DNA of 64,000 nt from NCBI RefSeq assembly GCF_003334315.1, contig NZ_QOWR01000004.1; one strand, written 5' to 3'. Positions 1 through 54,455 of this stretch are shown in pieces. The DNA comes from Escherichia coli. Its GTDB lineage: Bacteria > Pseudomonadota > Gammaproteobacteria > Enterobacterales > Enterobacteriaceae. Below the pieces are notes generated by a model. The model was not told the origin of the DNA. It made no database searches and was given only the letters and a program-made list of their open reading frames with translations. Numbering within the stretch: the first letter of the stretch is position 1; each line of letters begins with the position of its first letter. A program made the translations under genes and the position numbers.

Positions 1-1
1 C

Positions 2-874: not shown

Positions 875-879
875 AAGAC

Positions 880-907: not shown

Positions 908-909
908 CT

Positions 910-1161: not shown

Positions 1162-1540
1162 TATTTACTCCTTAAACAAGGACATTAGTCTACGCCAGGC
1201 ATGGCTTGCAGACAAATATACCACGCTGGTGGCAAGAGCGCCTTACTGGCAACTTTGGATTTTGCATGCTAATAAAGTTGCGTATCGGATTTTATCAGGT
1301 ACAGTGTGACGCTTTCGTCAATCTGGCAATAGATTTGCTTGACATTCGACCAAAATTCCGTCGTGCTATAGCGCCTGTAGGCCAAGACCTGTTAACTCAG
1401 TCACCTGAATTTTCGTGAACAGAGTCACGACAAGGGGTTGATATCCGCAGAGAGCGAGTCCATATCGGTAACTCGTTGCCAGTGGAAGGTTTATCAACGT
1501 GCGACGCATTCCTGGAAGAATCAAATTAGGTAAGGTGAAT

Positions 1541-4138
1541 ATGGGTAAAGCTCTTGTCATCGTTGAGTCCCCGGCAAAAGCCAAAACGATCAACAAGTAT
1601 CTGGGTAGTGACTACGTGGTGAAATCCAGCGTCGGTCACATCCGCGATTTGCCGACCAGTGGCTCAGCTGCCAAAAAGAGTGCCGACTCTACCTCCACCA
1701 AGACGGCTAAAAAGCCTAAAAAGGATGAACGTGGCGCTCTCGTCAACCGTATGGGGGTTGACCCGTGGCACAATTGGGAGGCGCACTATGAAGTGTTGCC
1801 TGGTAAAGAGAAGGTCGTCTCTGAACTGAAACAACTGGCTGAAAAAGCCGACCACATCTATCTCGCAACCGACCTTGACCGCGAAGGGGAAGCCATTGCA
1901 TGGCACCTGCGGGAAGTGATTGGTGGTGATGATGCGCGCTATAGCCGAGTGGTGTTTAACGAAATTACTAAAAACGCGATCCGCCAGGCATTTAACAAAC
2001 CGGGTGAGCTGAATATTGATCGTGTTAATGCCCAGCAGGCGCGTCGCTTTATGGACCGCGTGGTGGGGTATATGGTTTCGCCGCTGCTATGGAAAAAGAT
2101 CGCTCGTGGTCTGTCTGCCGGTCGTGTGCAGTCGGTGGCGGTTCGCCTGGTGGTCGAGCGTGAGCGTGAAATTAAAGCGTTCGTGCCGGAAGAGTTCTGG
2201 GAAGTCGATGCCAGCACGACCACGCCATCTGGTGAAGCGTTGGCGTTGCAGGTGACTCATCAGAACGACAAACCGTTCCGTCCGGTCAACAAAGAACAAA
2301 CTCAGGCTGCGGTAAGTCTGCTGGAAAAAGCGCGCTACAGCGTGCTGGAACGTGAAGACAAACCGACAACCAGTAAACCTGGCGCTCCTTTTATTACCTC
2401 TACGCTGCAACAAGCTGCCAGCACCCGTCTTGGATTTGGCGTGAAAAAAACCATGATGATGGCGCAGCGTTTGTATGAAGCAGGCTATATCACTTACATG
2501 CGTACCGACTCCACTAACCTGAGTCAGGACGCGGTAAATATGGTTCGCGGTTATATCAGCGATAATTTTGGTAAGAAATATCTGCCGGAAAGTCCGAATC
2601 AGTACGCCAGCAAAGAAAACTCACAGGAAGCGCACGAAGCGATTCGTCCTTCTGACGTCAATGTGATGGCGGAATCGCTGAAGGATATGGAAGCAGATGC
2701 GCAGAAACTGTACCAGTTAATCTGGCGTCAGTTCGTTGCCTGCCAGATGACCCCAGCGAAATATGACTCCACGACGCTGACCGTTGGTGCGGGCGATTTC
2801 CGCCTGAAAGCACGCGGTCGTATTTTGCGCTTTGATGGCTGGACGAAAGTGATGCCTGCACTGCGTAAAGGCGATGAAGATCGTATCTTACCGGCAGTCG
2901 ATAAAGGCGATGCTCTGACGCTCGTTGAACTGACACCAGCCCAGCACTTTACCAAGCCGCCAGCCCGTTTCAGTGAAGCATCGCTGGTTAAAGAACTGGA
3001 AAAACGTGGTATCGGTCGTCCGTCTACCTATGCGTCGATCATTTCGACCATTCAGGATCGTGGCTATGTGCGAGTAGAAAATCGTCGTTTCTATGCGGAA
3101 AAAATGGGCGAAATCGTCACCGATCGCCTGGAAGAGAATTTCCGCGAGTTAATGAACTACGACTTCACCGCGCAGATGGAAAACAGCCTCGACCAGGTGG
3201 CAAATCACGAAGCAGAGTGGAAAGCTGTACTGGATCACTTCTTCTCGGATTTCACCCAGCAGTTAGATAAAGCTGAAAAAGATCCGGAAGAGGGTGGTAT
3301 GCGCCCGAACCAGATGGTTCTGACCAGCATTGACTGCCCGACTTGTGGTCGCAAAATGGGGATTCGCACAGCGAGCACCGGGGTATTCCTTGGCTGTTCT
3401 GGCTATGCGCTGCCGCCGAAAGAGCGTTGCAAAACCACCATTAACCTGGTGCCGGAAAACGAAGTGCTGAACGTGCTGGAAGGCGAAGACGCTGAAACCA
3501 ACGCGCTGCGCGCAAAACGTCGTTGCCCGAAATGCGGCACGGCGATGGACAGCTATCTCATCGATCCGAAACGTAAGTTGCATGTCTGTGGTAATAACCC
3601 AACCTGCGACGGTTACGAGATCGAAGAGGGCGAATTCCGCATTAAAGGTTATGACGGCCCGATCGTTGAGTGTGAAAAATGTGGCTCTGAAATGCACCTG
3701 AAAATGGGGCGTTTCGGTAAATACATGGCCTGCACCAACGAAGAGTGTAAAAACACACGTAAGATTTTACGTAACGGCGAAGTGGCACCACCGAAAGAAG
3801 ATCCGGTGCCATTACCTGAGCTGCCGTGCGAAAAATCAGATGCTTATTTCGTGCTGCGTGACGGCGCTGCCGGTGTGTTCCTGGCTGCCAACACTTTCCC
3901 GAAATCGCGTGAAACGCGTGCGCCACTGGTGGAAGAGCTTTATCGCTTCCGCGACCGTCTGCCGGAAAAACTGCGTTATCTGGCAGATGCGCCACAGCAG
4001 GATCCTGAAGGTAATAAGACCATGGTTCGCTTTAGCCGTAAAACCAAACAGCAATATGTCTCTTCGGAAAAAGACGGAAAGGCGACTGGCTGGTCAGCAT
4101 TTTATGTTGATGGCAAATGGGTTGAAGGGAAAAAATAA
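1541..4138 (+). CDS. topA: DNA topoisomerase I (865 aa)
   Basis: ORF track 1499..4138; start moved to in-frame ATG ([22 protein letters not shown]-terminus); C-terminal Cys-rich zinc-ribbon repeats. Confidence 0.95.
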
Positions 4139-4167
4139 CCTTTAATTCTGTCAGGTTTTTATAAACA

Positions 4168-4196
4168 AAGGGTCGCGAAAGCGGCCCTTTTTTATT
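4168..4196 (+). terminator. Intrinsic terminator downstream of topA
   Basis: Read from sequence: hairpin gggtcgcgaaagcggccc followed by T-run; approximate coordinates. Confidence 0.6.
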
Positions 4197-4324
4197 GCAT
4201 ATTATTTTTTCTTCACACCTATACACTAAGGCTATAAATGATATAGTGGTTATAGTTAGCACCTTTTTTATTATTAAATCGTATTAGTCACGCCGCCTGG
4301 TGTGACGAAAAAACGATGTTCTGA

Positions 4325-5323
<999 letters not shown>

Positions 5324-5653
5324 TTTCTTGCGTTATTTTCGGCACCTTTTATGTAGCGAAGGTGCCGGAATATATTCTCTTTTGTTACTTATTTGTATAC
5401 CGTGCACAATATTTTTATCCCTCATATTTATAGGGTAAATTACCTGTAAAGTAGTGTCTAATTACCCGCCTCGCAAATTCCAGTTTTCAAATATCTATTT
5501 CAGGTCAAAAGATTGAATTATTCACTGGAGACGATTCGTAAATTCGCTGGATTTTTGACTAAAGTTTCTTTAGGATTTGTCTCATCGTATGATTAATTAC
5601 ACCAATCGTTCAACGTCTTGCTGATAAGTGATGGCGATTATATGAGGTTAGCA

Positions 5654-5782
5654 ATGCCTTCTGGAAATCAGGAACCCCGCCGCGATCCTGAATTAAAACG
5701 TAAAGCCTGGCTGGCGGTTTTTCTTGGTTCTGCACTTTTCTGGGTGGTTGTCGCACTGCTGATTTGGAAAGTGTGGGGATAA
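5654..5782 (+). CDS. ymiA: Small membrane protein YmiA (42 aa)
   Basis: Read from sequence: ATG..TAA encoding MPSGNQEPRRDPELKRKAWLAVFLGSALFWVVVALLIWKVWG; below ORF-track size cutoff; stop overlaps the yciX upstream frame. Confidence 0.7.
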   Translation: MPSGNQEPRRDPELKRKAWLAVFLGSALFWVVVALLIWKVWG

Positions 5783-5784
5783 CT

Positions 5785-5952
5785 ATGGTCGGTCAGGAGC
5801 AACTGGAGTCGTCACCATTATGCCAGCATAGTGACAATGAAACAGAAACGAAACGGGAATGTTCCGTCGTTATTCCAGACGACTGGCAACTAACATCGCA
5901 GCAGCAAGCCTTTATAGAACTGTTTGCTGAAGATGATCAGCCGAAACAATAA
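5785..5952 (+). CDS. yciX: Small protein YciX (55 aa)
   Basis: ORF track 5764..5952 (TTG-initiated); annotated here from internal ATG (MVGQEQLESSPLCQHSD...). Confidence 0.7.
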   Translation: MVGQEQLESSPLCQHSDNETETKRECSVVIPDDWQLTSQQQAFIELFAEDDQPKQ

Positions 5953-6065
5953 TTATCATCATTCTTATTACCCATTTTTAATGAATTACAGGGCTTTTAA
6001 TACACCGCAGCAATAACAGGTTGAGTTATCTCAACACAAAGTAATAACCGTTAAGGGTGTAGCCT

Positions 6066-6161
6066 ATGATCAACACAAATATGAAATATTGGTCCTGGAT
6101 GGGCGCGTTTTCTCTGTCGATGCTCTTCTGGGCCGAACTCCTCTGGATCATTACTCACTGA
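6066..6161 (+). CDS. Candidate 31-aa hydrophobic small protein upstream of acnA
   Basis: Read from sequence: MINTNMKYWSWMGAFSLSMLFWAELLWIITH; single predicted TM helix; not in ORF track (too short); not matched to a named gene. Confidence 0.3.
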   Translation: MINTNMKYWSWMGAFSLSMLFWAELLWIITH

Positions 6162-6324
6162 TCCCTGACCCCGTTGCGGCGGGGTTTTCATTTGCTTTGC
6201 CACAAGGTTTCTCCTCTTTTATCAATTTGGGTTGTTATCAAATCGTTACGCGATGTTTGTGTTATCTTTAATATTCACCCTGAAGAGAATCAGGGCTTCG
6301 CAACCCTGTCATTAAGGAGGAGCT

Positions 6325-9000
6325 ATGTCGTCAACCCTACGAGAAGCCAGTAAGGACGCGTTGCAGGCCAAAGATAAAACTTACCACTACTACAGCCTGC
6401 CGCTTGCTGCCAAATCACTGGGCGATATCACCCGTCTACCCAAGTCACTCAAAGTTTTGCTCGAAAACCTGCTGCGCTGGCAGGATGGTAACTCGGTTAC
6501 CGAAGAGGATATCCACGCGCTGGCGGGATGGCTGAAAAATGCCCATGCTGACCGTGAAATTGCCTACCGCCCGGCAAGGGTGCTGATGCAGGACTTTACC
6601 GGCGTACCTGCCGTTGTTGATCTGGCGGCAATGCGCGAAGCGGTTAAACGCCTCGGCGGCGATACTGCAAAGGTTAATCCGCTCTCACCGGTCGACCTGG
6701 TCATTGACCACTCGGTGACTGTCGATCGTTTTGGTGATGATGAGGCATTTGAAGAAAACGTACGCCTGGAAATGGAGCGCAACCACGAACGTTATGTGTT
6801 CCTGAAATGGGGAAAGCAGGCGTTCAGTCGGTTTAGCGTCGTGCCGCCAGGCACAGGCATTTGCCATCAGGTTAACCTCGAATATCTCGGCAAAGCAGTG
6901 TGGAGCGAATTGCAGGACGGTGAATGGATTGCTTATCCGGATACACTCGTTGGTACTGACTCGCACACCACCATGATCAACGGCCTTGGCGTGCTGGGGT
7001 GGGGCGTTGGTGGCATCGAAGCAGAAGCCGCAATGTTAGGCCAGCCGGTTTCCATGCTTATCCCGGACGTAGTGGGCTTCAAACTTACCGGAAAATTACG
7101 TGAAGGTATTACCGCCACAGACCTGGTTCTCACTGTTACCCAAATGCTGCGCAAACATGGCGTGGTGGGGAAATTCGTCGAATTTTATGGTGATGGTCTG
7201 GATTCACTACCGTTGGCGGATCGCGCCACCATTGCCAATATGTCGCCAGAATATGGTGCCACCTGTGGCTTCTTCCCAATCGATGCTGTAACCCTCGATT
7301 ACATGCGTTTAAGCGGGCGCAGCGAAGATCAGGTCGAGTTGGTCGAAAAATATGCCAAAGCGCAGGGCATGTGGCGTAACCCGGGCGATGAACCGATTTT
7401 TACCAGTACGTTAGAACTGGATATGAATGACGTTGAAGCGAGCCTGGCAGGGCCAAAACGCCCACAGGATCGCGTTGCACTGCCCGATGTACCAAAAGCA
7501 TTTGCCGCCAGTAACGAACTGGAAGTGAATGCCACGCATAAAGATCGCCAGCCGGTCGATTATGTTATGAACGGACATCAGTATCAGTTACCTGATGGCG
7601 CTGTGGTCATTGCTGCGATAACCTCGTGCACCAACACCTCTAACCCAAGTGTGCTGATGGCCGCAGGCTTGCTGGCGAAAAAAGCCGTAACTCTGGGCCT
7701 CAAGCGGCAACCATGGGTCAAAGCGTCGCTGGCACCGGGTTCGAAAGTCGTTTCTGATTATCTGGCAAAAGCGAAACTGACACCGTATCTCGACGAACTG
7801 GGGTTTAACCTTGTGGGATACGGTTGTACCACCTGTATTGGTAACTCTGGGCCGCTGCCCGATCCTATCGAAACGGCAATCAAAAAAGGCGATTTAACCG
7901 TCGGTGCGGTGCTGTCCGGCAACCGTAACTTTGAAGGCCGTATCCATCCGCTGGTTAAAACTAACTGGCTGGCCTCGCCGCCGCTGGTGGTTGCCTATGC
8001 GCTGGCGGGAAATATGAATATCAACCTGGCTTCTGAGCCTATCGGCCATGATCGCAAAGGCGATCCGGTTTATCTGAAAGATATCTGGCCATCGGCACAA
8101 GAAATTGCCCGTGCGGTAGAACAAGTCTCCACAGAAATGTTCCGCAAAGAGTACGCAGAAGTTTTTGAAGGCACAGCAGAGTGGAAGGGAATTCACGTCA
8201 CACGATCCGATACCTACGGTTGGCAGGAGGACTCAACCTATATTCGCTTATCGCCTTTCTTTGATGAAATGCAGGCAACACCAGCACCAGTGGAAGATAT
8301 TCACGGTGCGCGGATCCTCGCAATGCTGGGGGATTCAGTCACCACTGACCATATCTCTCCGGCGGGCAGTATTAAGCCCGACAGCCCAGCGGGTCGATAT
8401 CTACAAGGTCGGGGTGTTGAGCGAAAAGACTTTAACTCCTACGGTTCGCGGCGTGGTAACCATGAAGTGATGATGCGCGGCACCTTCGCCAATATTCGCA
8501 TCCGTAATGAAATGGTGCCTGGCGTTGAAGGGGGGATGACGCGGCATTTACCTTACAGCGACGTAGTCTCTATTTATGATGCTGCGATGCGCTATAAGCA
8601 GGAGCAAACGCCGCTGGCGGTGATTGCCGGGAAAGAGTATGGATCAGGCTCCAGTCGTGACTGGGCGGCAAAAGGTCCGCGTCTGCTTGGTATTCGTGTG
8701 GTGATTGCCGAATCGTTTGAACGAATTCACCGTTCGAATTTAATTGGCATGGGCATCCTGCCGCTGGAATTTCCGCAAGGCGTAACGCGTAAAACGTTAG
8801 GGCTAACCGGGGAAGAGAAGATTGATATTGGCGATCTGCAAAACCTACAACCCGGCGCGACGGTTTCGGTGACGCTTACGCGCGCGGATGGTAGCCAGGA
8901 AGTCGTACCCTGCCGTTGTCGTATCGACACCGCGACGGAGTTGACCTACTACCAGAACGACGGCATTTTGCATTATGTCATTCGTAATATGTTGAAGTAA
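6325..9000 (+). CDS. acnA: Aconitate hydratase A (891 aa)
   Basis: ORF track; RBS aggagg upstream; aconitase family motifs with Cys ligands; length 891 aa. Confidence 0.95.
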
Positions 9001-29981: not shown

Positions 29982-31401
29982 TTACGCGTTTTTCAACATC
30001 CACTCAATTTCTGTTTCTGTGATGAGGCGCTCAAACTGCAACAGCTCATCATTTTTACAGGCGTGATAGACATGGCAGAAGCGTTCGCCTAAATAGCGGC
30101 GCAGGTGATCATTCTCGATAAACTCACCCAGGGCATCGCTCTGGCGAATCGGAAAGGGTAAGCCTTCCTGTTCCAGCCCGTTGCCTTCGACTTCTTCCTG
30201 CAACGGCAGCTCGTTATCAAGGCCATGCAAAATACCGGCAAAAATCGCTGCCATCACCAGATATGGGGTGGCATCGGCACCCGCCACGCGATATTCCACG
30301 CGGTGATTATGACGGTCGCCGCACGGAATACGCAGGGCGACGGTGCGGTTGTTATGGCCCCACGACGCCTGCGTCGGCACATACATTCCCGGCTGGAAGC
30401 GGCGATACGAGTTCACGTTTGGTGCCAGCAACGCCATCGACGACGGCATCAGGTCAATCATCCCGGCGAGCATCTTTTTCAGCAGCGGCGAATCTTCGCC
30501 TTCCGCGTCAGAAAGCACGTTCTCGCCACGATTATTTTGCATACTGATATGGATATGCATTCCGCTGCCCGCGTGCTCTTCATACGGCTTCGCCATAAAA
30601 GTGGCGTGCATCTTATGCCTTTTCTGCCATCAGACGCACCAGGCGTTTTAGTGCCAGCGCATCATCGCAGGCTTCCAGCACGTTATCAGTATGGTAAAGG
30701 TTGATTTCAAACTGACCCGGCGAGGCCTCAGCGACCGCGCCATCTGCCGGAATCAGCTGTAACTGCGCCAGTTCATCAATATCATTGAGCACGTCGGCGA
30801 AGTGGTTGAGGTTATCAACGGAGTAAACCTGGCTTTGTGTATTGCGGTCATCGGTGCCAGGCGCGCAGGGCGGTTGCAGATACCCTTCAGCGTCGCGCTG
30901 GCGATCCAGTAAATAGAACTCCAGCTCTACCGCTACGACCGGGAACAATCCGCGCTGGCGCAGCTGCTGCCACAGGCGGTTAAGAACGTTCCGCGGCTCA
31001 ACGTCAAAGGGAGCGCCATCTTCATCGACCATGGTCAGGAGCATCTGACCGATAAACTCTGGATCGGCGGCAGAAGGAGTTAAGGAACCGAGAACAGGAA
31101 CACAGGTACGATCCGGCTCGCCCATTTCCTGACCCAGACCTGCTTCTTCTACTACGTTGCCCAGAATATCCATTGCAAATACCGAGGCCGGGAAATAACA
31201 CCCTTTCTCGAGCTTCTTCAGGCTTGAAACAGGAATACGCTTTCCACGGAAGCAACCATTTAAATCGGTAAGTAAAACATCAACATATTGCGTATTCGGG
31301 TAGCGCTCCAGGTAGCGTTTCACTTCCTGCGTAAAGGCGCTACCCCGCCTCTCTTCTGACTGCTGAACAAAGTTCTCTACTTCAACGATATTGGTTTCCA
31401 T
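29982..31401 (-). pseudogene. puuA: Gamma-glutamylputrescine synthetase PuuA (glutamine synthetase family), disrupted by a +1 frameshift near 30612-30619
   Basis: ORF track splits the gene into 30613..31479 (N-terminal, ends ...RLMAEKA*) and 29982..30611 (starts MHATFMAKPYEEHAGSGMHIH) in different frames; removing one G restores a 472-aa product. Confidence 0.8.
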
Positions 31402-40708: not shown

Positions 40709-42388
40709 ATGAAACAGAAAATTACGGATTACCTGGACGAAATCTACGGTGGAACATTTACCGCAACTCATTTACAGAAACTTGTAACGCGTCTTGAGAG
40801 TGCGAAACGATTAATTACACAGCGACGTAAAAAACACTGGGATGAAAGTGATGTCGTGTTAATTACCTATGCCGATCAATTTCACAGCAATGATTTAAAA
40901 CCATTACCCACATTTAATCAGTTTTACCATCAATGGCTGCAAAGCATTTTTTCACATGTTCATTTGTTGCCGTTTTATCCATGGTCATCTGATGATGGCT
41001 TTTCGGTAATTGATTATCATCAGGTCGCCAGTGAAGCGGGGGAGTGGCAGGATATTCAGTAACTCGGTGAATGCAGTCATTTAATGTTTGATTTTGTCTG
41101 CAACCATATGTCGGCAAAAAGTGAATGGTTTAAAAACTATTTACAACAGCATCCAGGTTTTGAAGATTTTTTTATTGCCGTTGACCCGCAAACCGATCTC
41201 AGCGCCGTCACTCGCCCGCGTGCGTTACCGTTATTAACGCCATTCCAGATGCGCGATCATTCAACGCGCCATTTATGGACCACCTTTAGTGACGATCAAA
41301 TTGACCTGAATTACCGTAGCCCTGAAGTGTTGCTGGCGATGGTGGATGTTTTACTCTGTTACCTTGCGAAAGGTGCTGAGTATGTCCGCCTGGATGCCGT
41401 TGGCTTTATGTGGAAAGAGCCGGGAACAAGCTGCATCCATCTGGAAAAAACACATCTGATTATCAAACTGTTACGGTCGATTATTGATAACGTTGCGCCA
41501 GGTACAGTGATCATTACCGAGACCAATGTTCCGCATAAAGACAACATTGCTTACTTTGGCGCAGGCGATGACGAAGCACATATGGTGTACCAGTTCTCGC
41601 TGCCGCCACTGGTGCTGCATGCGGTGCAAAAACAGAACGTTGAGGCGCTTTGTGCGTGGGCGCAAAACCTGACACTACCTTCCAGCAACACCACCTGGTT
41701 TAACTTCCTCGCCTCTCACGATGGCATCGGGCTAAACCCGCTACGGGGCTTGTTGCCTGAAAGCGAAATATTAGAGCTGGTCGAGGCGTTACAGCAGGAA
41801 GGTGCATTAGTAAACTGGAAAAATAATCCCGACGGTACACGCAGTCCGTATGAAATAAATGTGACCTATATGGATGCGTTAAGCCGCCGTGAGAGTAGCG
41901 ATGAAGAACGTTGCGCCAGGTTTATCCTTGCCCATGCGATTTTGTTAAGTTTCCCCGGTGTGCCAGCGATATATATTCAAAGTATTCTTGGCTCGCGTAA
42001 TGATTACGCAGGTGTCGAAAAACTCGGATATAACCGTGCGATTAACCGTAAAAAATATCACAGTAAAGAGATAACCCGAGAACTGAACGATGAAGCTACA
42101 TTAAGGCATGCGGTATATCATGAGTTGTCGCGTTTAATTACACTTCGTCGCAGCCATAACGAGTTTCATCCGGATAATAATTTTACCATTGATACGATTA
42201 ATTCATCCGTAATGCGTATTCAAAGAAGTAACGCTGATGGTAATTGTCTGACTGGATTGTTTAATGTCAGTAAAAATATTCAGCATGTAAATATTACTAA
42301 TCTGCATGGTCGGGATCTGATTAGTGAAGTTGATATATTGGGTAATGAAATAACGCTGCGCCCCTGGCAGGTTATGTGGATTAAATAA
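40709..42388 (+). pseudogene. ycjM: GH13 sucrose-phosphorylase-like glucosylglycerate phosphorylase YcjM, interrupted by an in-frame TAA at 41060-41062
   Basis: ORF track gives two same-frame ORFs, 40682..41062 and 41084..42388 (offset 402 nt); 117 aa + stop codon + 7 aa + 434 aa reproduces the expected 559 codons. Confidence 0.8.
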
Positions 42389-42401: not shown

Positions 42402-43694
42402 ATGATTAAATCAAAAATCGTGCTGTTATCAGCACTGGTTTCATGCGCCCTGATTTCAGGCTGTAAAGAAGAAAATAAAACGAATGTATCCATCGAATTT
42501 ATGCATTCTTCGGTGGAGCAGGAGCGCCAGGCCGTTATCAGTAAATTGATTGCCCGTTTTGAAAAAGAAAACCCTGGCATCACCGTTAAGCAAGTGCCCG
42601 TGGAAGAAGATGCCTATAACACTAAAGTCATTACTCTTTCACGTAGCGGTTCGCTGCCGGAAGTGATCGAAACCAGCCATGACTACGCCAAAGTGATGGA
42701 CAAAGAGCAGCTTATCGATCGCAAAGCGGTTGCCACAGTCATCAGCAACGTTGGTGAAGGCGCGTTTTACGATGGCGTACTGCGTATTGTGCGTACCGAA
42801 GATGGTAGCGCATGGACCGGTGTTCCTGTCAGCGCCTGGATTGGCGGTATCTGGTATCGCAAAGATGTGCTGGCAAAAGCGGGGCTTGAGGAGCCGAAAA
42901 ACTGGCAACAGCTGCTGGACGTTGCACAGAAACTGAATGACCCGGCGAATAAAAAATACGGCATTGCGCTGCCTACAGCAGAAAGCGTGTTGACGGAACA
43001 ATCCTTCTCCCAGTTTGCGTTATCCAACCAGGCTAACGTCTTTAACGCCGAAGGCAAAATCACCCTTGATACACCAGAGATGATGCAGGCACTGACCTAT
43101 TACCGCGACCTTGCTGCCAACACTATGCCGGGTTCTAACGACATCATGGAAGTGAAAGACGCCTTTATGAACGGCACCGCGCCGATGGCGATTTACTCCA
43201 CCTATATCCTTCCGGCTGTGATTAAAGAAGGCGACCCGAAAAACGTCGGTTTCGTGGTGCCAACCGAGAAAAACTCTGCGGTCTACGGCATGTTGACCTC
43301 GCTGACCATTACCGCCGGGCAAAAGACCGAAGAGACGGAAGCAGCAGAAAAATTTGTCACCTTTATGGAGCAGGCAGACAACATTGCCGACTGGGTGATG
43401 ATGTCGCCAGGTGCTGCGCTGCCGGTGAATAAAGCGGTGGTGACTACCGCCACCTGGAAAGACAACGACGTTATTAAGGCGCTGGGTGAACTACCGAATC
43501 AGCTAATCGGTGAACTGCCAAATATTCAGGTTTTTGGCGCAGTAGGGGATAAAAACTTTACCCGCATGGGTGATGTGACGGGTTCTGGCGTGGTGAGTTC
43601 AATGGTGCATAACGTCACCGTGGGTAAAGCCGATCTCTCTACTACGCTGCAAGCGAGCCAGAAAAAACTGGATGAACTGATCGAACAGCACTAA
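42402..43694 (+). CDS. ycjN: ABC transporter periplasmic sugar-binding protein YcjN (430 aa)
   Basis: ORF track; lipoprotein-type signal (LISGC). Confidence 0.85.
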   Translation: MIKSKIVLLSALVSCALISGCKEENKTNVSIEFMHSSVEQERQAVISKLIARFEKENPGITVKQVPVEEDAYNTKVITLSRSGSLPEVIETSHDYAKVMDKEQLIDRKAVATVISNVGEGAFYDGVLRIVRTEDGSAWTGVPVSAWIGGIWYRKDVLAKAGLEEPKNWQQLLDVAQKLNDPANKKYGIALPTAESVLTEQSFSQFALSNQANVFNAEGKITLDTPEMMQALTYYRDLAANTMPGSNDIMEVKDAFMNGTAPMAIYSTYILPAVIKEGDPKNVGFVVPTEKNSAVYGMLTSLTITAGQKTEETEAAEKFVTFMEQADNIADWVMMSPGAALPVNKAVVTTATWKDNDVIKALGELPNQLIGELPNIQVFGAVGDKNFTRMGDVTGSGVVSSMVHNVTVGKADLSTTLQASQKKLDELIEQH

Positions 43695-43714: not shown

Positions 43715-44596
43715 ATGAACAGGCTTTTTTCAGGTCGTTCCGATATGCCCTTTGCGCTGCTGCTTCTCGCGCCCAGCTTATTACTGCTGGGCGGTCTGGT
43801 GGCGTGGCCGATGGTGTCGAATATCGAAATCAGTTTTTTACGTCTGCCGCTCAATCCCAACATCGAGTCAACGTTTGTTGGGGTGAGCAACTATGTGCGT
43901 ATCCTCTCCGATCCCGGCTTCTGGCATTCGCTGTGGATGACGGTCTGGTATACCGCGCTGGTGGTGGCGGGCAGCACCGTGCTCGGGCTGGCGGTGGCGA
44001 TGTTTTTCAACCGCGAGTTCCGCCTGCGCAAAACCGCGCGTTCGCTGGTGATCCTCTCCTACGTAACGCCGTCCATTTCGCTGGTGTTCGCCTGGAAATA
44101 CATGTTCAACAACGGCTACGGCATTGTTAACTACCTCGGCGTCGATCTTCTGCATCTCTATGAGCAGGCACCGCTGTGGTTCGATAATCCGGGCAGTAGC
44201 TTTGTGCTGGTGGTGCTGTTCGCCATCTGGCGCTACTTCCCGTATGCCTTTATCTCGTTTCTGGCGATTTTGCAGACCATCGACAAATCGCTGTACGAAG
44301 CGGCAGAGATGGATGGCGCTAATGCCTGGCAACGGTTTCGTATCGTCACGCTGCCCGCAATTATGCCGGTCCTGGCGACGGTGGTGACACTGCGCACCAT
44401 CTGGATGTTCTACATGTTCGCGGATGTTTATTTGCTGACGACCAAGGTCGATATTCTCGGTGTATATCTCTACAAAACCGCCTTTGCCTTTAATGATTTA
44501 GGAAAAGCGGCGGCGATCTCGGTGGTGCTCTTCATCATTATTTTCGCTGTCATTCTGCTGACCAGGAAACGGGTGAACCTCAATGGCAACAAATAA
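43715..44596 (+). CDS. ycjO: ABC transporter permease YcjO (293 aa)
   Basis: ORF track; MalF/UgpA-like permease. Confidence 0.85.
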   Translation: MNRLFSGRSDMPFALLLLAPSLLLLGGLVAWPMVSNIEISFLRLPLNPNIESTFVGVSNYVRILSDPGFWHSLWMTVWYTALVVAGSTVLGLAVAMFFNREFRLRKTARSLVILSYVTPSISLVFAWKYMFNNGYGIVNYLGVDLLHLYEQAPLWFDNPGSSFVLVVLFAIWRYFPYAFISFLAILQTIDKSLYEAAEMDGANAWQRFRIVTLPAIMPVLATVVTLRTIWMFYMFADVYLLTTKVDILGVYLYKTAFAFNDLGKAAAISVVLFIIIFAVILLTRKRVNLNGNK

Positions 44597-45425
44597 ACGC
44601 ACACTCAGTCGCATCGGTTTTTACTGCGGGCTGGCGCTGTTTCTCATCATCACGCTGTTTCCATTTTTTGTGATGCTGATGACCTCGTTCAAGGGCGCGA
44701 AAGAGGCGATCTCACTGCATCCTACGCTGCTGCCGCAGCAGTGGACGCTGGAGCATTACGTCGACATTTTTAACCCGATGATTTTCCCGTTTGTCGACTA
44801 CTTCCGTAACAGTCTGGTGGTGTCTGTGGTTTCATCCGTGGTGGCGGTATTCCTCGGCATTCTTGGGGCTTACGCGCTTTCCCGCCTGCGCTTTAAAGGT
44901 CGGATGACCATCAACGCCAGCTTTTACACGGTGTATATGTTCTCTGGCATTTTGCTGGTGGTGCCGCTTTTCAAAATCATCACCGCGCTTGGCATTTACG
45001 ACACTGAGATGGCGCTGATCATCACCATGGTGACGCAAACTCTGCCCACCGCCGTGTTTATGCTGAAAAGCTACTTCGACACCATCCCCGATGAGATCGA
45101 AGAAGCGGCGATGATGGATGGCCTCAACCGTCTGCAAATTATCTTCCGCATCACCGTGCCGTTGGCGATGTCCGGGCTGATATCCGTGTTCGTCTACTGC
45201 TTTATGGTGGCGTGGAACGACTATCTGTTTGCGTCGATTTTCCTCTCCAGCGCCAGCAATTTCACCTTACCGGTGGGCCTGAACGCGCTGTTCAGTACGC
45301 CAGATTACATCTGGGGACAGATGATGGCGGCCTCACTGGTGACCGCATTGCCGGTGGTGATTATGTATGCGCTTTCGGAACGTTTTATTAAGAGTGGTTT
45401 GACCGCCGGTGGCGTGAAGGGCTAA
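44583..45425 (+). CDS. ycjP: ABC transporter permease YcjP (280 aa)
   Basis: ORF track; MalG-like permease. Confidence 0.85.
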   Translation: MATNKRTLSRIGFYCGLALFLIITLFPFFVMLMTSFKGAKEAISLHPTLLPQQWTLEHYVDIFNPMIFPFVDYFRNSLVVSVVSSVVAVFLGILGAYALSRLRFKGRMTINASFYTVYMFSGILLVVPLFKIITALGIYDTEMALIITMVTQTLPTAVFMLKSYFDTIPDEIEEAAMMDGLNRLQIIFRITVPLAMSGLISVFVYCFMVAWNDYLFASIFLSSASNFTLPVGLNALFSTPDYIWGQMMAASLVTALPVVIMYALSERFIKSGLTAGGVKG

Positions 45426-45455: not shown

Positions 45456-46508
45456 ATGAAAAAGTTAGTAGCCACAGCACCGCGTGTTGCTGCGCTGGTT
45501 GAGTATGAAGATCGGGCGATTTTAGCTAATGAAGTGAAGATCCGCGTGCGTTTCGGCGCACCGAAACACGGAACGGAAGTGGTCGACTTCCGCGCCGCCA
45601 GCCCGTTTATTGATGAAGACTTTAACGGCGAATGGCAGATGTTCACTCCGCGTCCGGCAGATGCGCCGCGCGGCATTGAGTTTGGCAAATTCCAGCTTGG
45701 CAACATGGTGGTTGGCGACATTATCGAGTGCGGCAGCGACGTTACCGACTACGCGGTGGGCGACAGCGTATGCGGCTACGGCCCGCTCTCCGAGACGGTC
45801 ATCATTAACGCAGTGAATAACTACAAGCTGCGCAAAATGCCGCAAGGCAGCTCCTGGAAAAACGCCGTCTGCTACGACCCGGCGCAGTTTGCCATGAGCG
45901 GCGTGCGCGATGCCAACGTGCGCGTAGGGGATTTTGTGGTGGTGGTAGGGCTTGGCGCAATCGGTCAAATTGCCATCCAACTGGCTAAACGCGCTGGCGC
46001 TTCTGTGGTGATTGGCGTCGATCCTATCGCCCATCGCTGTGATATTGCCCGTCGCCACGGCGCGGATTTCTGCCTTAACCCCATCGGCACTGATGTAGGT
46101 AAAGAGATCAAAACGCTGACCGGCAAGCAGGGTGCCGATGTGATTATCGAAACCAGCGGCTACGCCGACGCGCTGCAATCGGCGCTCCGCGGTCTGGCTT
46201 ATGGCGGCACCATCTCCTATGTCGCGTTTGCCAAGCCGTTTGCCGAAGGTTTTAACCTCGGACGCGAAGCGCATTTCAATAACGCCAAAATTGTCTTCTC
46301 TCGCGCGTGCAGCGAACCGAACCCGGATTATCCGCGCTGGAGCCGCAAGCGTATTGAAGAAACCTGTTGGGAACTGCTGATGAACGGTTATCTCAATTGC
46401 GAAGATTTAATCGACCCGGTGGTGACCTTTGCCAATAGCCCGGAAAGCTATATGCAGTATGTCGACCAGCATCCGGAACAGAGCATCAAAATGGGCGTTA
46501 CGTTTTAA
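45456..46508 (+). CDS. ycjQ: Zinc-type alcohol dehydrogenase-like sugar dehydrogenase YcjQ (350 aa)
   Basis: ORF track; MDR family with GLGAIG Rossmann motif. Confidence 0.85.
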   Translation: MKKLVATAPRVAALVEYEDRAILANEVKIRVRFGAPKHGTEVVDFRAASPFIDEDFNGEWQMFTPRPADAPRGIEFGKFQLGNMVVGDIIECGSDVTDYAVGDSVCGYGPLSETVIINAVNNYKLRKMPQGSSWKNAVCYDPAQFAMSGVRDANVRVGDFVVVVGLGAIGQIAIQLAKRAGASVVIGVDPIAHRCDIARRHGADFCLNPIGTDVGKEIKTLTGKQGADVIIETSGYADALQSALRGLAYGGTISYVAFAKPFAEGFNLGREAHFNNAKIVFSRACSEPNPDYPRWSRKRIEETCWELLMNGYLNCEDLIDPVVTFANSPESYMQYVDQHPEQSIKMGVTF

Positions 46509-46526
46509 TTCAAAGGAATGAAAAAA

Positions 46527-47315
46527 ATGAAAATCGGCACACAGAATCAGGCGTTCTTTCCGGAAAACATTCTGGAGAAATTTCGTTATATCAAAGAGAT
46601 GGGCTTCGATGGTTTTGAGATTGACGGCAAACTGCTGGTTAACAACATCGAAGAAGTCAAAGCGGCGATCAAAGAAACCGGTTTACCGGTGACCACCGCC
46701 TGCGGTGGCTATGACGGATGGATTGGCGACTTTATCGAAGAGCGTCGTCTTAATGGCTTAAAGCAGATCGAGCGCATTCTCGAAGCGCTGGCAGAAGTGG
46801 GCGGTAAAGGCATCGTCGTTCCGGCTGCGTGGGGCATGTTTACCTTCCGCTTACCGCCGATGACCTCGCCGCGTAGCCTGGACGGCGACCGCAAAATGGT
46901 GAGTGATTCCCTGCGCGTACTGGAACAGGTCGCCGCGCGTACCGGAACCGTGGTGTATCTCGAACCGTTAAACCGCTATCAGGATCATATGATCAACACC
47001 CTCGCCGATGCCCGCCGTTACATCGTCGAAAACGATCTTAAACATGTACAGATTATCGGCGATTTCTATCACATGAATATCGAAGAAGATAACCTGGCGC
47101 AGGCGCTGCATGACAACCGCGACCTGCTCGGTCATGTGCATATTGCGGATAACCATCGCTACCAGCCGGGCAGCGGCACCCTGGATTTCCACGCGCTGTT
47201 TGAACAGCTGCGCGCGGATAACTATCAGGGCTATGTAGTGTACGAAGGGCGTATCCGGGCGGAAGATCCTGCCCAGGCGTACCGTGATTCGTTGGCCTGG
47301 TTGCGTACCTGCTAA
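46527..47315 (+). CDS. ycjR: Sugar phosphate isomerase/epimerase (xylose-isomerase-like TIM barrel) YcjR, 262 aa
   Basis: ORF track 46518..47315; start moved to MKIGTQNQAF. Confidence 0.85.
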   Translation: MKIGTQNQAFFPENILEKFRYIKEMGFDGFEIDGKLLVNNIEEVKAAIKETGLPVTTACGGYDGWIGDFIEERRLNGLKQIERILEALAEVGGKGIVVPAAWGMFTFRLPPMTSPRSLDGDRKMVSDSLRVLEQVAARTGTVVYLEPLNRYQDHMINTLADARRYIVENDLKHVQIIGDFYHMNIEEDNLAQALHDNRDLLGHVHIADNHRYQPGSGTLDFHALFEQLRADNYQGYVVYEGRIRAEDPAQAYRDSLAWLRTC

Positions 47316-47324
47316 GAGGTCTTT

Positions 47325-48380
47325 GTGAAAAGTGCAATGACAAGCTCTCCGCTGCGGGTCGCGATAATAGGCGCAGGCCAGGTGGCGGATAAGGTTCATG
47401 CTTCGTACTACTGCACCCGCAACGATCTGGAACTGGTGGCTGTCTGTGACAGCCGCCTTTCCCAGGCGCAGGCGCTGGCAGAAAAATACGGGAATGCATC
47501 CGTGTGGGACGATCCGCAGGCCATGCTGCTGGCGGTGAAACCTGATGTGGTTAGCGTCTGCTCACCTAACCGTTTTCATTACGAACATACCCTGATGGCA
47601 CTGGAAGCGGGCTGCCATGTGATGTGCGAAAAACCGCCCGCCATGACGCCAGAACAGGCGCGGGAAATGTGCGATACCGCGCGCAAACTGGGCAAGGTGC
47701 TGGCCTACGACTTTCACCATCGTTTTGCGCTCGATACGCAACAGCTGCGTGAACAGGTGACCAACGGCGTTTTGGGAGAGATTTACGTTACCACCGCCCG
47801 CGCCCTGCGTCGCTGCGGCGTTCCCGGCTGGGGTGTCTTTACCAATAAAGAACTGCAGGGTGGTGGCCCGCTGATCGACATCGGCATTCATATGCTGGAT
47901 GCTGCGATGTATGTGCTGGGCTTTCCGGCGGTGAAAAGCGTGAATGCGCATAGCTTTCAAAAGATCGGCACGCAAAAGAGCTGTGGTCAATTTGGTGAGT
48001 GGGATCCGGCAACTTACAGCGTCGAAGATTCGCTGTTTGGCACCATTGAATTTCATAACGGCGGCATTCTGTGGCTGGAAACGTCATTTGCACTCAACAT
48101 CCGCGAACAGTCGATTATGAACGTCAGCTTTTGTGGTGATAAAGCTGGTGCGACGCTGTTTCCAGCACATATCTACACCGATAACAACGGTGAATTAATG
48201 ACGCTGATGCAACGGGAAATGGCAGACGACAACCGCCATTTGCGCAGCATGGAAGCCTTTATCAATCACGTACAGGGCAAGCCCGTGATGATAGCCGACG
48301 CCGAGCAGGGGTACATCATCCAGCAACTGGTGGCGGCGTTGTATCAATCCGCAGAAACAGGGACGCGTGTGGAATTATGA
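47325..48380 (+). CDS. ycjS: Gfo/Idh/MocA-family NAD-dependent oxidoreductase YcjS (351 aa)
   Basis: ORF track; N-terminal VAIIGAGQVA Rossmann motif. Confidence 0.85.
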   Translation: MKSAMTSSPLRVAIIGAGQVADKVHASYYCTRNDLELVAVCDSRLSQAQALAEKYGNASVWDDPQAMLLAVKPDVVSVCSPNRFHYEHTLMALEAGCHVMCEKPPAMTPEQAREMCDTARKLGKVLAYDFHHRFALDTQQLREQVTNGVLGEIYVTTARALRRCGVPGWGVFTNKELQGGGPLIDIGIHMLDAAMYVLGFPAVKSVNAHSFQKIGTQKSCGQFGEWDPATYSVEDSLFGTIEFHNGGILWLETSFALNIREQSIMNVSFCGDKAGATLFPAHIYTDNNGELMTLMQREMADDNRHLRSMEAFINHVQGKPVMIADAEQGYIIQQLVAALYQSAETGTRVEL

Positions 48381-50644
48381 CCAGGCCAGTAACGTTATCA
48401 GAACCCCATTTCAGCCAGCATACCCTGAACAAGTATGCATCGCTGATGGCGCAGGGGAACGGCTATCTTGGGCTTCGCGCCAGCCATGAAGAAGATTACA
48501 CGCGCCAGACGCGAGGGATGTATCTGGCGGGGCTGTATCATCGGGCGGGAAAAGGTGAAATCAACGAACTGGTGAACCTGCCTGATGTCGTGGGGATGGA
48601 GATTGCCATAAATGGTGAGGTTTTCTCGTTATCCCACGAAGCCTGGCAGCGTGAGCTTGACTTTGCCAGTGGCGAATTACGCCGCAATGTTGTCTGGCGT
48701 ACCAGCAACGGCTCAGGTTACACCATCGCCAGCCGTCGCTTTGTTTCGGCAGACCAACTGCCGCTCATTGCGCTGGAAATCACTATTACGCCACTGGACG
48801 CCGACGCGTCAGTGCTGATTTCAACAGGCATTGACGCCACGCAAACCAATCACGGTCGCCAACATCTCGACGAAACCCAGGTGCGGGTGTTTGGTCAGCA
48901 TCTGATGCAGGGGAGCTACACCACCCAGGATGGACGCAGTGATGTGGCCATCAGCTGTTGCTGTAAGGTGAGCGGTGATGTGCAGCAATGCTATACCGCC
49001 AAAGAGCGCCGTTTACTGCAACATACCAGTGCGCAGCTTCATGCAGGCGAGACAATGACGTTGCAAAAACTGGTGTGGATCGACTGGCGGGATGACAGGC
49101 AAGCTGCTTTAGACGAGTGGGGCAGCGCGTCGCTTCGCCAGCTTGAAATGTGCGCGCAGCAGAGTTACGACCAACTTCTTGCAGCATCAACAGAAAACTG
49201 GCGTCAATGGTGGCAGAAACGTCGTATCACGGTAAATGGCGGCGAAGCGCACGATCAGCAAGCGTTAGATTATGCGCTTTATCATCTGCGCATCATGACG
49301 CCTGCCCACGACGAGCGCAGCAGCATTGCGGCAAAAGGCTTAACCGGCGAAGGCTACAAAGGCCACGTTTTCTGGGATACAGAAGTATTTTTGTTACCGT
49401 TTCATCTGTTTAGCGATCCGACGGTTGCCCGAAGTTTACTGCGTTATCGCTGGCACAACTTGCCAGGCGCGCAGGAGAAAGCGCGACGCAACGGCTGGCA
49501 GGGCGCGCTATTTCCGTGGGAAAGCGCGCGCAGCGGCGAAGAAGAGACGCCGGAATTTGCCGCCATTAACATTCGCACCGGGCTGCGGCAAAAAGTGGCC
49601 TCGGCGCAGGCGGAACATCATCTGGTGGCCGATATCGCCTGGGCGGTTATTCAATACTGGCAGACCACGGGGGATGAAAGTTTCATTGCGCATGAAGGCA
49701 TGGCGCTACTTCTGGAGACGGCAAAGTTCTGGATTAGCCGCGCGGTGAGAGTTAACGATCGTCTGGAAATTCATGATGTTATTGGGCCAGACGAATATAC
49801 CGAACATGTCAATAATAATGCATACACCAGCTATATGGCCCGCTACAACGTTCAACAGGCGCTGAATATTGCCCGCCAGTTCGGCTGTAGCGACGATGCG
49901 TTTATCCATCGCGCCGAAATGTTCCTCAAAGAGCTATGGATGCCAGAAATTCAGCCCGACGGCGTTTTGCCGCAGGATGATTCGTTTATGGCTAAGCCGG
50001 CGATTAATCTGGCGAAATACAAAGCGGCGGCGGGGAAGCAAACCATACTGCTGGATTATTCACGCGCAGAAGTGAACGAGATGCAGATCCTCAAACAAGC
50101 TGATGTGGTGATGCTCAATTACATGCTGCCGGAGCAGTTCTCAGCGGCATCGTGTCTTGCCAATCTGCAATTTTATGAACCGCGCACTATTCACGACTCG
50201 TCATTAAGTAAAGCAATCCACGGCATTGTTGCCGCACGCTGTGGCCTGCTGACCCAAAGTTATCAGTTCTGGCGCGAGGGGACTGAAATCGATCTTGGTG
50301 CTGATCCGCATAGTTGTGATGATGGTATCCATGCTGCCGCAACTGGCGCTATCTGGCTGGGGGCGATTCAGGGTTTTGCCGGGGTGAGCGTGCGTGACGG
50401 TGAATTGCATCTCAATCCGGCGTTACCTGAGCAGTGGCAACAGTTGTCTTTCCCTCTGTTCTGGCAGGGCTGCGAATTACAGGTCACTCTTGACGCGCAG
50501 CGTATTGCGATTCGAACTTCTGCGCCCGTTTCACTGCGTTTGAACGGTCAGCTTATAACCGTGGCTGAAGAATCTGTTTTCTGTTTGGGTGATTTTATTT
50601 TGCCCTTCAATGGGACCGCTACCAAACATCAGGAGGATGAATGA
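48377..50644 (+). CDS. ycjT: GH65 kojibiose phosphorylase YcjT (755 aa)
   Basis: ORF track; GH65 family, overlaps ycjS/ycjU by 4 nt. Confidence 0.88.
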
Positions 50645-51300
50645 AACTGCAAGGGGTAATTTTCGATCTGGATGGTGTAATCACCGATACCGCGCATCTG
50701 CATTTCCAGGCGTGGCAGCAGATTGCCGCTGAAATTGGCATCAGCATTGATGCGCAGTTTAACGAATCCCTAAAAGGGATCAGCCGCGATGAGTCTCTGC
50801 GGCGCATTCTGCAACACGGGGGCAAAGAGGGCGACTTTAACTCGCAGGAGAGGGCGCAACTGGCGTATCGCAAAAATCTGCTCTATGTCCACTCACTACG
50901 CGAGTTGACGGTCAACGCTGTTCTACCCGGCATTCGCTCTTTGCTGGCAGATCTCCGTGCACAGCAGATCTCGGTTGGGCTGGCTTCTGTCTCCCTGAAT
51001 GCGCCGACGATTTTAGCGGCGCTGGAGCTGCGCGAGTTTTTCACCTTCTGCGCGGATGCTTCCCAACTTAAAAACTCGAAACCGGACCCGGAAATCTTTC
51101 TCGCCGCCTGTGCAGGGCTGGGCGTGCCGCCGCAGGCATGTATCGGCATTGAAGATGCGCAGGCGGGCATTGACGCCATTAACGCCAGCGGTATGCGCTC
51201 GGTGGGGATCGGCGCGGGCTTAACCGGGGCGCAATTACTGTTGCCTTCAACGGAATCACTCACCTGGCCGCGGTTATCGGCCTTCTGGCAAAACGTATAG
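50641..51300 (+). CDS. ycjU: Beta-phosphoglucomutase YcjU (HAD superfamily), 219 aa
   Basis: ORF track; HAD motif [10 protein letters not shown]. Confidence 0.9.
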
Positions 51301-51313
51301 CAAAGGAATCAAC

Positions 51314-52396
51314 ATGGCTCAGCTTTCGTTACAACATATTCAAAAAATCTACGATAACCAGGTGCATGTGGTGAAGGACTTCAACCTGGAAATTGCCGAT
51401 AAAGAGTTCATCGTGTTTGTCGGCCCGTCGGGCTGCGGTAAGTCGACCACCCTGCGCATGATTGCCGGGCTTGAGGAGATCAGCGGCGGCGATCTGTTGA
51501 TCGACGGCAAACGAATGAATGACGTTCCAGCCAAAGCACGCAATATAGCGATGGTGTTCCAGAACTACGCGTTGTATCCGCATATGACGGTTTACGACAA
51601 CATGGCGTTTGGTCTGAAGATGCAAAAAATCGCCAAAGAGGTGATTGATGAGCGGGTGAACTGGGCGGCGCAAATTCTCGGCCTGCGTGAGTACCTGAAA
51701 CGTAAGCCGGGGGCGCTTTCCGGCGGGCAACGTCAGCGAGTGGCGCTTGGGCGGGCGATTGTACGCGAAGCGGGCGTGTTTTTAATGGATGAACCGCTCT
51801 CTAACCTTGATGCCAAGCTGCGCGTGCAAATGCGCGCAGAGATCAGCAAGCTGCATCAGAAACTGAACACCACCATGATCTACGTGACCCACGATCAGAC
51901 CGAAGCGATGACCATGGCGACGCGGATTGTGATTATGAAAGACGGGATTGTTCAGCAAGTAGGTGCGCCGAAAACCGTTTATAACCAACCCGCGAATATG
52001 TTTGTTTCCGGATTTATTGGATCACCAGCGATGAATTTTATTCGCGGCACGATCGATGGCGATAAATTCGTTACGGAAACGCTTAAATTAACCATTCCCG
52101 AAGAGAAATTAGCGGTTCTGAAAACACAGGAAAGTTTGCATAAGCCCATCGTGATGGGAATACGACCGGAAGATATTCATCCGGACGCGCAAGAGGAAAA
52201 TAACATTTCCGCCAAAATTAGCGTGGCAGAATTAACCGGTGCGGAATTTATGCTCTACACCACGGTTGGGGGGCACGAGTTAGTGGTCCGTGCTGGTGCG
52301 TTAAATGATTATCATGCAGGAGAAAATATCACTATTCATTTTGATATGACGAAATGTCATTTCTTTGATGCAGAAACGGAAATAGCAATTCGCTAA
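51314..52396 (+). CDS. ycjV: MalK-like ABC transporter ATP-binding protein YcjV, intact 360 aa
   Basis: ORF track; Walker A GPSGCGKST, signature LSGGQRQRV. Confidence 0.88.
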   Translation: MAQLSLQHIQKIYDNQVHVVKDFNLEIADKEFIVFVGPSGCGKSTTLRMIAGLEEISGGDLLIDGKRMNDVPAKARNIAMVFQNYALYPHMTVYDNMAFGLKMQKIAKEVIDERVNWAAQILGLREYLKRKPGALSGGQRQRVALGRAIVREAGVFLMDEPLSNLDAKLRVQMRAEISKLHQKLNTTMIYVTHDQTEAMTMATRIVIMKDGIVQQVGAPKTVYNQPANMFVSGFIGSPAMNFIRGTIDGDKFVTETLKLTIPEEKLAVLKTQESLHKPIVMGIRPEDIHPDAQEENNISAKISVAELTGAEFMLYTTVGGHELVVRAGALNDYHAGENITIHFDMTKCHFFDAETEIAIR

Positions 52397-52440: not shown

Positions 52441-53346
52441 ATGAAAAAGTTATTACCCTGTACCGCACTGGTGATGTGTGCGGGAATGGCCTGCGCACAG
52501 GCCGAGGAAAGGAACGACTGGCACTTTAATATCGGCGCGATGTACGAAATAGAAAACGTCGAGGGTTATGGCGAAGATATGGATGGGCTGGCGGAGCCTT
52601 CAGTCTATTTTAATGCCGCCAACGGGCCGTGGAGAATTGCTCTGGCCTATTATCAGGAAGGGCCGGTAGATTATAGCGCGGGTAAACGTGGAACGTGGTT
52701 TGATCGCCCGGAGCTGGAGGTGCATTATCAGTTCCTCGAAAACGATGATTTCAGTTTCGGCCTGACCGGCGGTTTCCGTAATTATGGTTATCACTACGTT
52801 GATGAACCGGGTAAAGACACGGCGAATATGCAGCGCTGGAAAATCGCGCCAGACTGGGATGTGAAACTGACTGACGATTTACGTTTCAACGGTTGGTTGT
52901 CGATGTATAAATTTGCCAACGATCTGAACACTACCGGTTACGCTGATACCCGTGTCGAAACGGAAACAGGTCTGCAATATACCTTCAACGAAACGGTTGC
53001 CTTGCGAGTGAACTATTATCTCGAGCGCGGCTTCAATATGGACGACAGCCGCAATAACGGTGAGTTTTCCACGCAAGAAATTCGCGCCTATTTGCCGCTG
53101 ACGCTCGGCAACCACTCGGTGACGCCGTATACGCGCATTGGGCTGGATCGCTGGAGTAACTGGGACTGGCAGGATGATATTGAACGTGAAGGCCATGATT
53201 TTAACCGTGTAGGTTTATTTTACGGTTATGATTTCCAGAACGGACTTTCCGTTTCGCTGGAATACGCGTTTGAGTGGCAGGATCACGACGAAGGCGACAG
53301 TGATAAATTCCATTATGCAGGTGTCGGCGTAAATTACTCGTTCTGA
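52441..53346 (+). CDS. ompG: Outer membrane porin OmpG (301 aa)
   Basis: ORF track; signal peptide, beta-barrel with C-terminal aromatic residue. Confidence 0.92.
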   Translation: MKKLLPCTALVMCAGMACAQAEERNDWHFNIGAMYEIENVEGYGEDMDGLAEPSVYFNAANGPWRIALAYYQEGPVDYSAGKRGTWFDRPELEVHYQFLENDDFSFGLTGGFRNYGYHYVDEPGKDTANMQRWKIAPDWDVKLTDDLRFNGWLSMYKFANDLNTTGYADTRVETETGLQYTFNETVALRVNYYLERGFNMDDSRNNGEFSTQEIRAYLPLTLGNHSVTPYTRIGLDRWSNWDWQDDIEREGHDFNRVGLFYGYDFQNGLSVSLEYAFEWQDHDEGDSDKFHYAGVGVNYSF

Positions 53347-53456: not shown

Positions 53457-54455
53457 TTATTTCAGCGTCATATGCGTGGCAACGGTAATATTCTGTGGTG
53501 ACGGTTTTCCAGAAATTAAGCGGAATAATAACTCGCAGCTTTGTTGACCTAACTCCTGCGTCGGAACATCGATGCCGCCCGGTGCAGGCGTTAAAATAAA
53601 TGACAGCGTTTCATTGCTATAACCCACCACCGCTAACTGCTGCGGAATAGCAATATTTTTCTCTGCTGCCGCACGATAAATGCTCATTAATTTCAGGCTG
53701 TCAGTGGCAAACACCGCCTCAGGCAACGGTGACTGGCTTAATAATTGCCGTGCTGCTTTTAATGCAGTTTCATGGGTATAACCGCCATCAACAATCCATT
53801 CATCACGCACTGCAATATTATGCGCAGCCAGGCTCTGCTTATAACCATTAACGCGATCAACCGAAACATGGACATCAAGCGGAGCATGCAGGCAGGCAAT
53901 ATTTTGATGCCCACTTTCAATTAATGCATCGGTCAACGCAATGCTGTCGCCAAAATTATCGGTATCGACAGAATAAACATGGGCATATTGACCTTCAACT
54001 TTGCCAATCACCACCACCGGAATATCATATTTATCGAGTTGGGCAAAAAATGACTCATCCGCTGGCGAACTGAGCATAATAATGCCTTTAATCATTTTCT
54101 GCTTAATTTTGCTTTCGCATTTTTGCAGATCTTCTGCCGGATTGTGCGACGTTTGTAATATCACGTCGAAACCTTCTTCTTCAGCTTTGGCGGTGATGGC
54201 ATGCAAAACTTCAGAGAAAAACGGATTACCCGCCGTAGTTTTGGTCGAACGGGTAGAAATCACCATAATGGCATCAAAACCCGAAGAGGTCAGCGCGCGG
54301 GCCAGCTTGTTTGGCTGATACTGTAATTCTTCAATGGCCCGTAACACTTTTTCGCGCGCTTCCGGGGAGATATTAGTTTGCTTATTCAGCACGCGTGATA
54401 CGGTGGATTTTGATACGCCTGCAACCCTGGCAATATCATAAATAGTAGGGGACAT
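53457..54455 (-). CDS. ycjW: LacI-family transcriptional regulator YcjW (332 aa)
   Basis: ORF track; N-terminal HTH ([24 protein letters not shown]). Confidence 0.9.

Follow-up and report, generated by a model that had tools for sequence, protein, structure and literature searches.

The window, that is, the whole stretch of 64,000 nucleotides of Escherichia coli DNA analysed here, carries the ycj gene cluster, and ycjV is the gene under study. A preliminary description of this DNA had called ycjV an intact ABC ATPase of 360 amino acids, and the ORF listing gives exactly such a gene: a single ORF of 360 codons with an ATG start, located at 51314..52396 on the + strand. A Shine-Dalgarno sequence, AAGGA, lies 6 nt 5' of the ATG, inside the 13-nt gap that follows the ycjU stop codon. 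The gene and the features assigned to it are as follows.

51303..51307, + strand: Shine-Dalgarno sequence AAGGA of ycjV (read from the sequence)
51314..52396, stop codon included, + strand: ycjV, predicted nucleotide-binding subunit of the YcjNOP-YcjV carbohydrate ABC importer (ORF listing, Pfam, RefSeq)
51422..51445, + strand: Walker A motif (P-loop) GPSGCGKS, ycjV codons 37-44 (motif search of the translation)
51716..51730, + strand: ABC signature LSGGQ, ycjV codons 135-139 (motif search)
51776..51793, + strand: Walker B motif VFLMDE, ycjV codons 155-160, with the catalytic Glu160 (motif search)
51887..51895, + strand: H-switch THD, ycjV codons 192-194, with His193 (motif search)
52019..52366, + strand: C-terminal MalK-type regulatory domain, OB_MalK at residues 236-288 and TOBE_2 at residues 282-351 (Pfam; alignment with MsmX 6YIR)
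52268..52273, + strand: homopolymer of six G (G6) in ycjV codons Gly319-Gly320, where K-12 has five (G5) (alignment, allele counts)

All six motifs of an ABC nucleotide-binding domain (PF00005) are present in YcjV, in the expected order; in addition to those listed, the motif search of the translation detected the Q-loop (Q83) and, after Walker B, the D-loop (SNLD, residues 163-166). The Pfam matches comprise ABC_tran (PF00005, residues 21-162, E 2.6e-31), OB_MalK (E 6.5e-14) and TOBE_2 (E 9.8e-10). Motif search and Pfam thus agree with the earlier description, which had credited the protein with Walker A and signature motifs and with a regulatory domain at the C-terminus. In both protein and DNA, the gene is identical to that of WP_000057985.1, the RefSeq YcjV of strain ST12468. 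No difference separates the window protein from this accession, which represents non-K-12 strains and is likewise encoded between ycjU/pgmB and ompG. The WP_000057985.1 protein has been purified, accumulates on expression and retains ATPase activity (Leisico 2020, PMC7658222). With an identical RefSeq protein and a 64%-identical crystal structure in existence, the identity of YcjV can be considered settled, and no evidence in this analysis contradicts it. We put at about 95% the probability that the window ORF is the ancestral, functional-type ycjV allele, encoding the ATPase of a type I, CUT1-family carbohydrate ABC importer. Although correct, the finding is an ordinary one and contains nothing new, since the intact protein already has a RefSeq accession and published biochemistry.

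The closest solved relatives of YcjV are MsmX (6YIR, E 1e-148), the ABC protein 7X0Q, AlgS, an archaeal MalK, SugC and E. coli MalK. All of these are nucleotide-binding domains of sugar importers, which supports the reading of YcjV as a sugar-importer ATPase. YcjV aligns end to end with MsmX, AlgS and MalK, and the alignment includes the OB/TOBE regulatory domain. Among the NCBIfam models, YcjV scores above the cut-off of NF008653 (UgpC-type subfamily; 482.9 bits against 432) and below that of the MalK equivalog NF008233 (429.1 bits against 568). YcjV is a paralogue of MalK and not MalK itself, and shows no sign of regulation by MalT or EIIA-Glc; the E. coli MalK structures (PDB 1Q12 and 2R6G; E 1.5e-99) have the fold and mechanism class in common with it, and MalK is about 45% identical to the MsmX group (PMC7658222).

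The best solved-structure match, Bacillus subtilis MsmX (PDB 6YIR), is a multitask ATPase, and it aligns with YcjV over the full length and has the same architecture of a nucleotide-binding domain followed by OB/TOBE domains. On the basis of this match and the 64% identity of the two proteins (PMC7658222), YcjV might be thought to be a shared, MsmX/MsmK-like ATPase, energising several importers and not YcjNOP alone. This is very improbable. MsmX is encoded by an orphan gene, whereas ycjV is embedded in the operon of its own transporter, and YcjV does not complement an msmX null in B. subtilis, where it fails to replace MsmX for AraNPQ and GanSPQ (PMC7658222). Moreover, the four charged residues of the proposed multitask signature (D77, R104, E110 and K154 in MsmX) all differ in YcjV, where an ungapped alignment places N77, Q104, V110 and G154. 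The lack of these four residues is consistent with the failed complementation, and YcjV falls outside the multitask class. The ATPase of its own operon's importer is the preferred reading of YcjV.

YcjV is predicted to work with the binding lipoprotein YcjN and with two permeases, YcjO and YcjP (PMC11543891); a screen of YcjN for ligands by nanoDSF found none (PMC11543891). A transport mechanism of the MalK type may be proposed by analogy. OmpG would provide entry through the outer membrane, YcjN would bind the substrate, YcjO and YcjP would form the permease, and YcjV, probably the partner of these three proteins, would act as the cytoplasmic ATPase. Judging from its homologues MalK and MsmX, YcjV would dock on YcjOP as two subunits, held together as a dimer by their C-terminal OB/TOBE domains. 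The dimer would close around two ATP molecules, with the Walker A and B motifs of one subunit set against the LSGGQ of the other, and hydrolysis of the ATP would then drive release of the substrate into the cell.

The same preliminary description had stated that MG1655 splits this gene into two pseudogenes, ycjV' and ymjB, and the annotation of MG1655 (NC_000913.3) agrees, with the pseudogenes ycjV (b1318, 1380821-1381789) and ymjB (b4524, 1381789-1381902). The gene of K-12 ER3413 is flagged as 'frameshifted' in RefSeq. The alignment to MG1655 ycjV/ymjB that had been suggested as a check was run, and the same uninterrupted 360-codon ORF is absent from MG1655. A three-way alignment of the window, MG1655 and ER3413 contains one difference in 1083 columns, namely the G run, which has six G in the window and five in each of the two K-12 records, a result well outside what chance would give. 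The MG1655 ycjV'/ymjB sequence, at the same locus, is thus identical to the window gene at 1082 of 1083 positions; it lacks one G of the run, and its frame shifts after Gly320. That frame ends ...TTVGGTS*, with Thr, Ser and a stop following Gly320, for a product of 322 amino acids.

The K-12 product lacks the last 40 residues of the protein (321-360), which amount to about half of the TOBE_2 match and, in the MsmX alignment, to the terminal part of the C-terminal barrel. These residues survive in K-12 only as the ymjB fragment, in which the last 37 codons of the gene are stranded. Judged by the domain boundaries, the truncation of YcjV in K-12 is probably a loss of function. K-12 carries a derived deletion of one base from the G6 run at codons 319-320, which the window strain has never undergone. 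Programmed ribosomal or transcriptional slippage was considered as a means of restoring the K-12 frame and was set aside, as no slippery heptamer is evident; to our knowledge, a run of five G is below the length of known transcriptional slippage. The pseudogene status of ycjV in K-12 is itself already well known, being part of the reference annotation. The gene is listed among the pseudogenes in evolution experiments (PMC4786092) and is used by metabolic engineers as a neutral site for integration (PMC10380740), while a literature search on 'ymjB' returned nothing informative.

The distribution of the two alleles was determined in a database of 5,426 complete E. coli genomes, using queries of 45-47 nt centred on the G run, for which megablast seeds only on the exact allele. 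The G6 allele was detected in 4,617 of these genomes, including O157:H7, UM146 and O103:H2; the window groups with them and is not a member of the K-12 pseudogene allele class. The G5 allele was detected in 371 of the 5,426, nearly all of them K-12 laboratory derivatives, and most carriers bear K-12 names (MG1655, W3110, BW2952, C600, XL1-Blue, MC4100) and have genomes of about 4.6 Mb. Together, the two alleles account for 4,988 genomes, a number near the 4,981-5,002 that have ycjV at all; 424 of the 5,426 complete genomes give no megablast match to the gene. A G7 (+1) allele, sought to see whether the run slips in both directions, was found in none of the 5,426.

Purifying selection on ycjV is strong: pN/pS lies between 0.008 and 0.07 in five of the six comparisons of the window gene with other E. 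coli alleles; the sixth, with OkiPb01703, gives 0.19, a value derived from five differences only. Divergent intact alleles differ almost only at third codon positions, and no stops occur in any of them. Because G6 is the commonest allele and the gene is conserved, intact ycjV is taken to be the ancestral and selected state, and K-12 the exception. The intact gene is the norm of the species and K-12 the oddity, which reverses the emphasis of the first description.

Since the window gene is otherwise base-for-base identical to that of K-12, the sixth G could in principle be a sequencing or assembly error, or a reversion in a descendant of a K-12-like G5 ancestor. Homopolymers are error-prone, G5 occurs sporadically on unrelated haplotypes, and two further private changes in the window are possibly errors. 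However, the 4,617 complete genomes with G6 are independent and represent all major lineages, and 1,612 records match ycjV at an identity of at least 99%, six of which, in a spread sample, are 100% identical over the whole gene. The G6 frame, moreover, yields a full TOBE domain that aligns to the end of MsmX. An error or a reversion can be given almost no weight against this evidence, and a genuine G6 allele, inherited intact, is retained as the explanation for the window gene.

Some G5 carriers lie outside the laboratory strains. Three haplotypes unrelated to K-12, those of 95-3192, OkiPb01703 and EC6622 (L005, L006 and L008, with ycjV at 567-1648), have the G5 allele and are separated from K-12 by 15, 5 and 21 substitutions, respectively, and these differences rule out that all non-K-12 carriers of G5 are relatives of K-12. 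PJ-T13, also a G5 carrier, is identical to K-12 over 3 kb. The presence of G5 on clearly different haplotypes points to recurrent -1 slippage or to recurrent assembly error in the homopolymer. If the allele is real in each case, the G6 run would be a recurrent -1 hotspot, G5 being found on at least four ycjV haplotypes. Two other lesions at the locus, both involving IS1A, were observed in other strains. In one (L009, 2599-3296), an insertion at the 3' end of ycjV results in a 354-aa variant; in the other (L010, 4841-6234), IS1A bridges a remnant of ycjM and the last 234 nt of ycjV, with ycjN-ycjU deleted.

The remaining genes of the cluster in the window are the following.

40709..42388, + strand: ycjM, glucosylglycerate phosphorylase, a pseudogene in the window strain (Q118*, TAA at 41060-41062)
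42402..43694, + strand: ycjN, intact, encoding the importer's substrate-binding lipoprotein, with T238A against MG1655
43715..44596, + strand: ycjO, permease, intact, protein identical to that of MG1655
44583..45425, + strand: ycjP, permease, intact, with a private R246Q (A at 45319)
45456..51300, + strand: ycjQ, ycjR, ycjS, ycjT and ycjU (pgmB), catabolic enzymes, all intact
52441..53346, + strand: ompG, outer-membrane porin and final gene of the operon, protein identical to that of MG1655
53457..54455, - strand: ycjW, LacI-family repressor of the operon (function: PMC6599011), protein identical to that of MG1655

The ycjM nonsense codon had been described as the only visible lesion in the cluster, and at the level of ORFs this is borne out: ORFs of full length are present for ycjN, O, P, Q, R, S, T and U, ompG and ycjW. 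The lesion in ycjM is a change of CAA to TAA at 41060, in codon 118 of 559. Complete genomes with the Q118* allele number 63 and come from humans, pigs, poultry and frogs, and the ycjM of ST12468 carries the PGAP note 'internal stop'. The window belongs to a natural lineage marked by this allele. An in-frame ATG at 41084, 24 nt after the stop, opens an ORF of 434 amino acids (41084-42388); re-initiation there could soften polarity, and the resulting protein would be missing the phosphorylase's first 125 residues.

The private R246Q substitution of YcjP is absent from all 5,426 complete genomes searched. It was considered as a second lesion in the cluster and rejected as unlikely, as the position is variable, the aligned residue being Ser in SugB and Asp in MalG, both of them solved homologues.

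The cluster forms a predicted operon, ycjMNOPQRSTUV-ompG, that is repressed by YcjW, and a second ChIP peak for YcjW has been mapped upstream of ycjU (PMC6599011). In a scan around ycjV, promoter and terminator counts are not above the shuffled expectation, and no terminator-like site is found on the + strand between ycjV and ompG. Because ycjM is the first gene of the operon and contains a nonsense codon, the stop could be polar on the genes downstream. It may thus be that ycjV is intact and the importer nevertheless silent or crippled, either through Rho-dependent polarity from Q118*, given that a stop at codon 118 of 559 in a single predicted operon leaves about 1.3 kb of ycjM mRNA untranslated, or through impairment of the permease by R246Q, a substitution without a match in the genomes searched. 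Either outcome seems unlikely, although less so than the alternatives discussed above. Re-initiation at the ATG at 41084 could limit polarity, and the ChIP peak 5' of ycjU suggests internal control or transcription near ycjV. Every gene downstream of ycjM is also intact across the 63 genomes of the Q118* lineage, and residue 246 of YcjP is not conserved. The transporter may be functional in the window strain.

The MG1655 strain possesses a functional kojibiose phosphorylase and a repressor that responds to kojibiose (PMC6599011), and the same source reports that it does not grow when kojibiose is the only source of carbon. Recent functional work on 'YcjNOPV', including the ΔycjN phenotypes, was done in K-12 (PMC13053599). 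The words pseudogene and frameshift were not found in connection with ycjV in the literature on the Ycj transporter and YcjW, as far as it was searched. As a tentative suggestion, which we regard as possible but short of probable, the ycjV deletion of K-12 may explain the failure of MG1655 on kojibiose and may be an overlooked confounder in K-12 studies of 'YcjNOPV'. Conclusions on the Ycj transporter that derive from K-12 rest on a background in which the cognate ATPase is without its last 40 residues, and natural isolates with the G6 allele would be the right hosts for such work. Natural strains that are ycjV+ and ycjM-, such as the window strain, would, in addition, allow the kojibiose/guloside branch of the pathway to be told apart from its glucosylglycerate branch.

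The non-MG1655 background that had been claimed for this DNA is confirmed by 139 substitutions and five indels relative to MG1655 over 62.5 kb. From MG1655 position 1329508 onward the two sequences are collinear, with an identity of 99.77%. Natural isolates, among them ST12468 (from human blood, Houston), are the best matches of the window, and the identity to such isolates is 100% over the first 20 kb of the window. The differences from MG1655 are unevenly spread. Clusters lie at the window start (1-8000), with 15-20 substitutions per 2 kb, and at 16-18 kb, near pdeR, with 38, and almost none are found from 18 kb onward. This clustering resembles a recombination mosaic on a K-12-like backbone of phylogroup A.

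Outside the ycj cluster, the window has an extra C at 30618 in puuA (glutamate-putrescine ligase, approximately 29982-31401, - strand), reading ATGCCTTTTC where both MG1655 and ST12468 read ATGCTTTTC, which causes a frameshift at about codon 262 of 472. The extra-C allele matches none of the 5,426 complete genomes, which leaves a private lesion or an error of sequencing as its explanation. ST12468, the closest complete genome, has a frameshift in puuD (L004, 5073-5838) that is absent from the window. The window and ST12468 thus each have an apparent lesion of their own in the putrescine (puu) pathway, in puuA and puuD, respectively.
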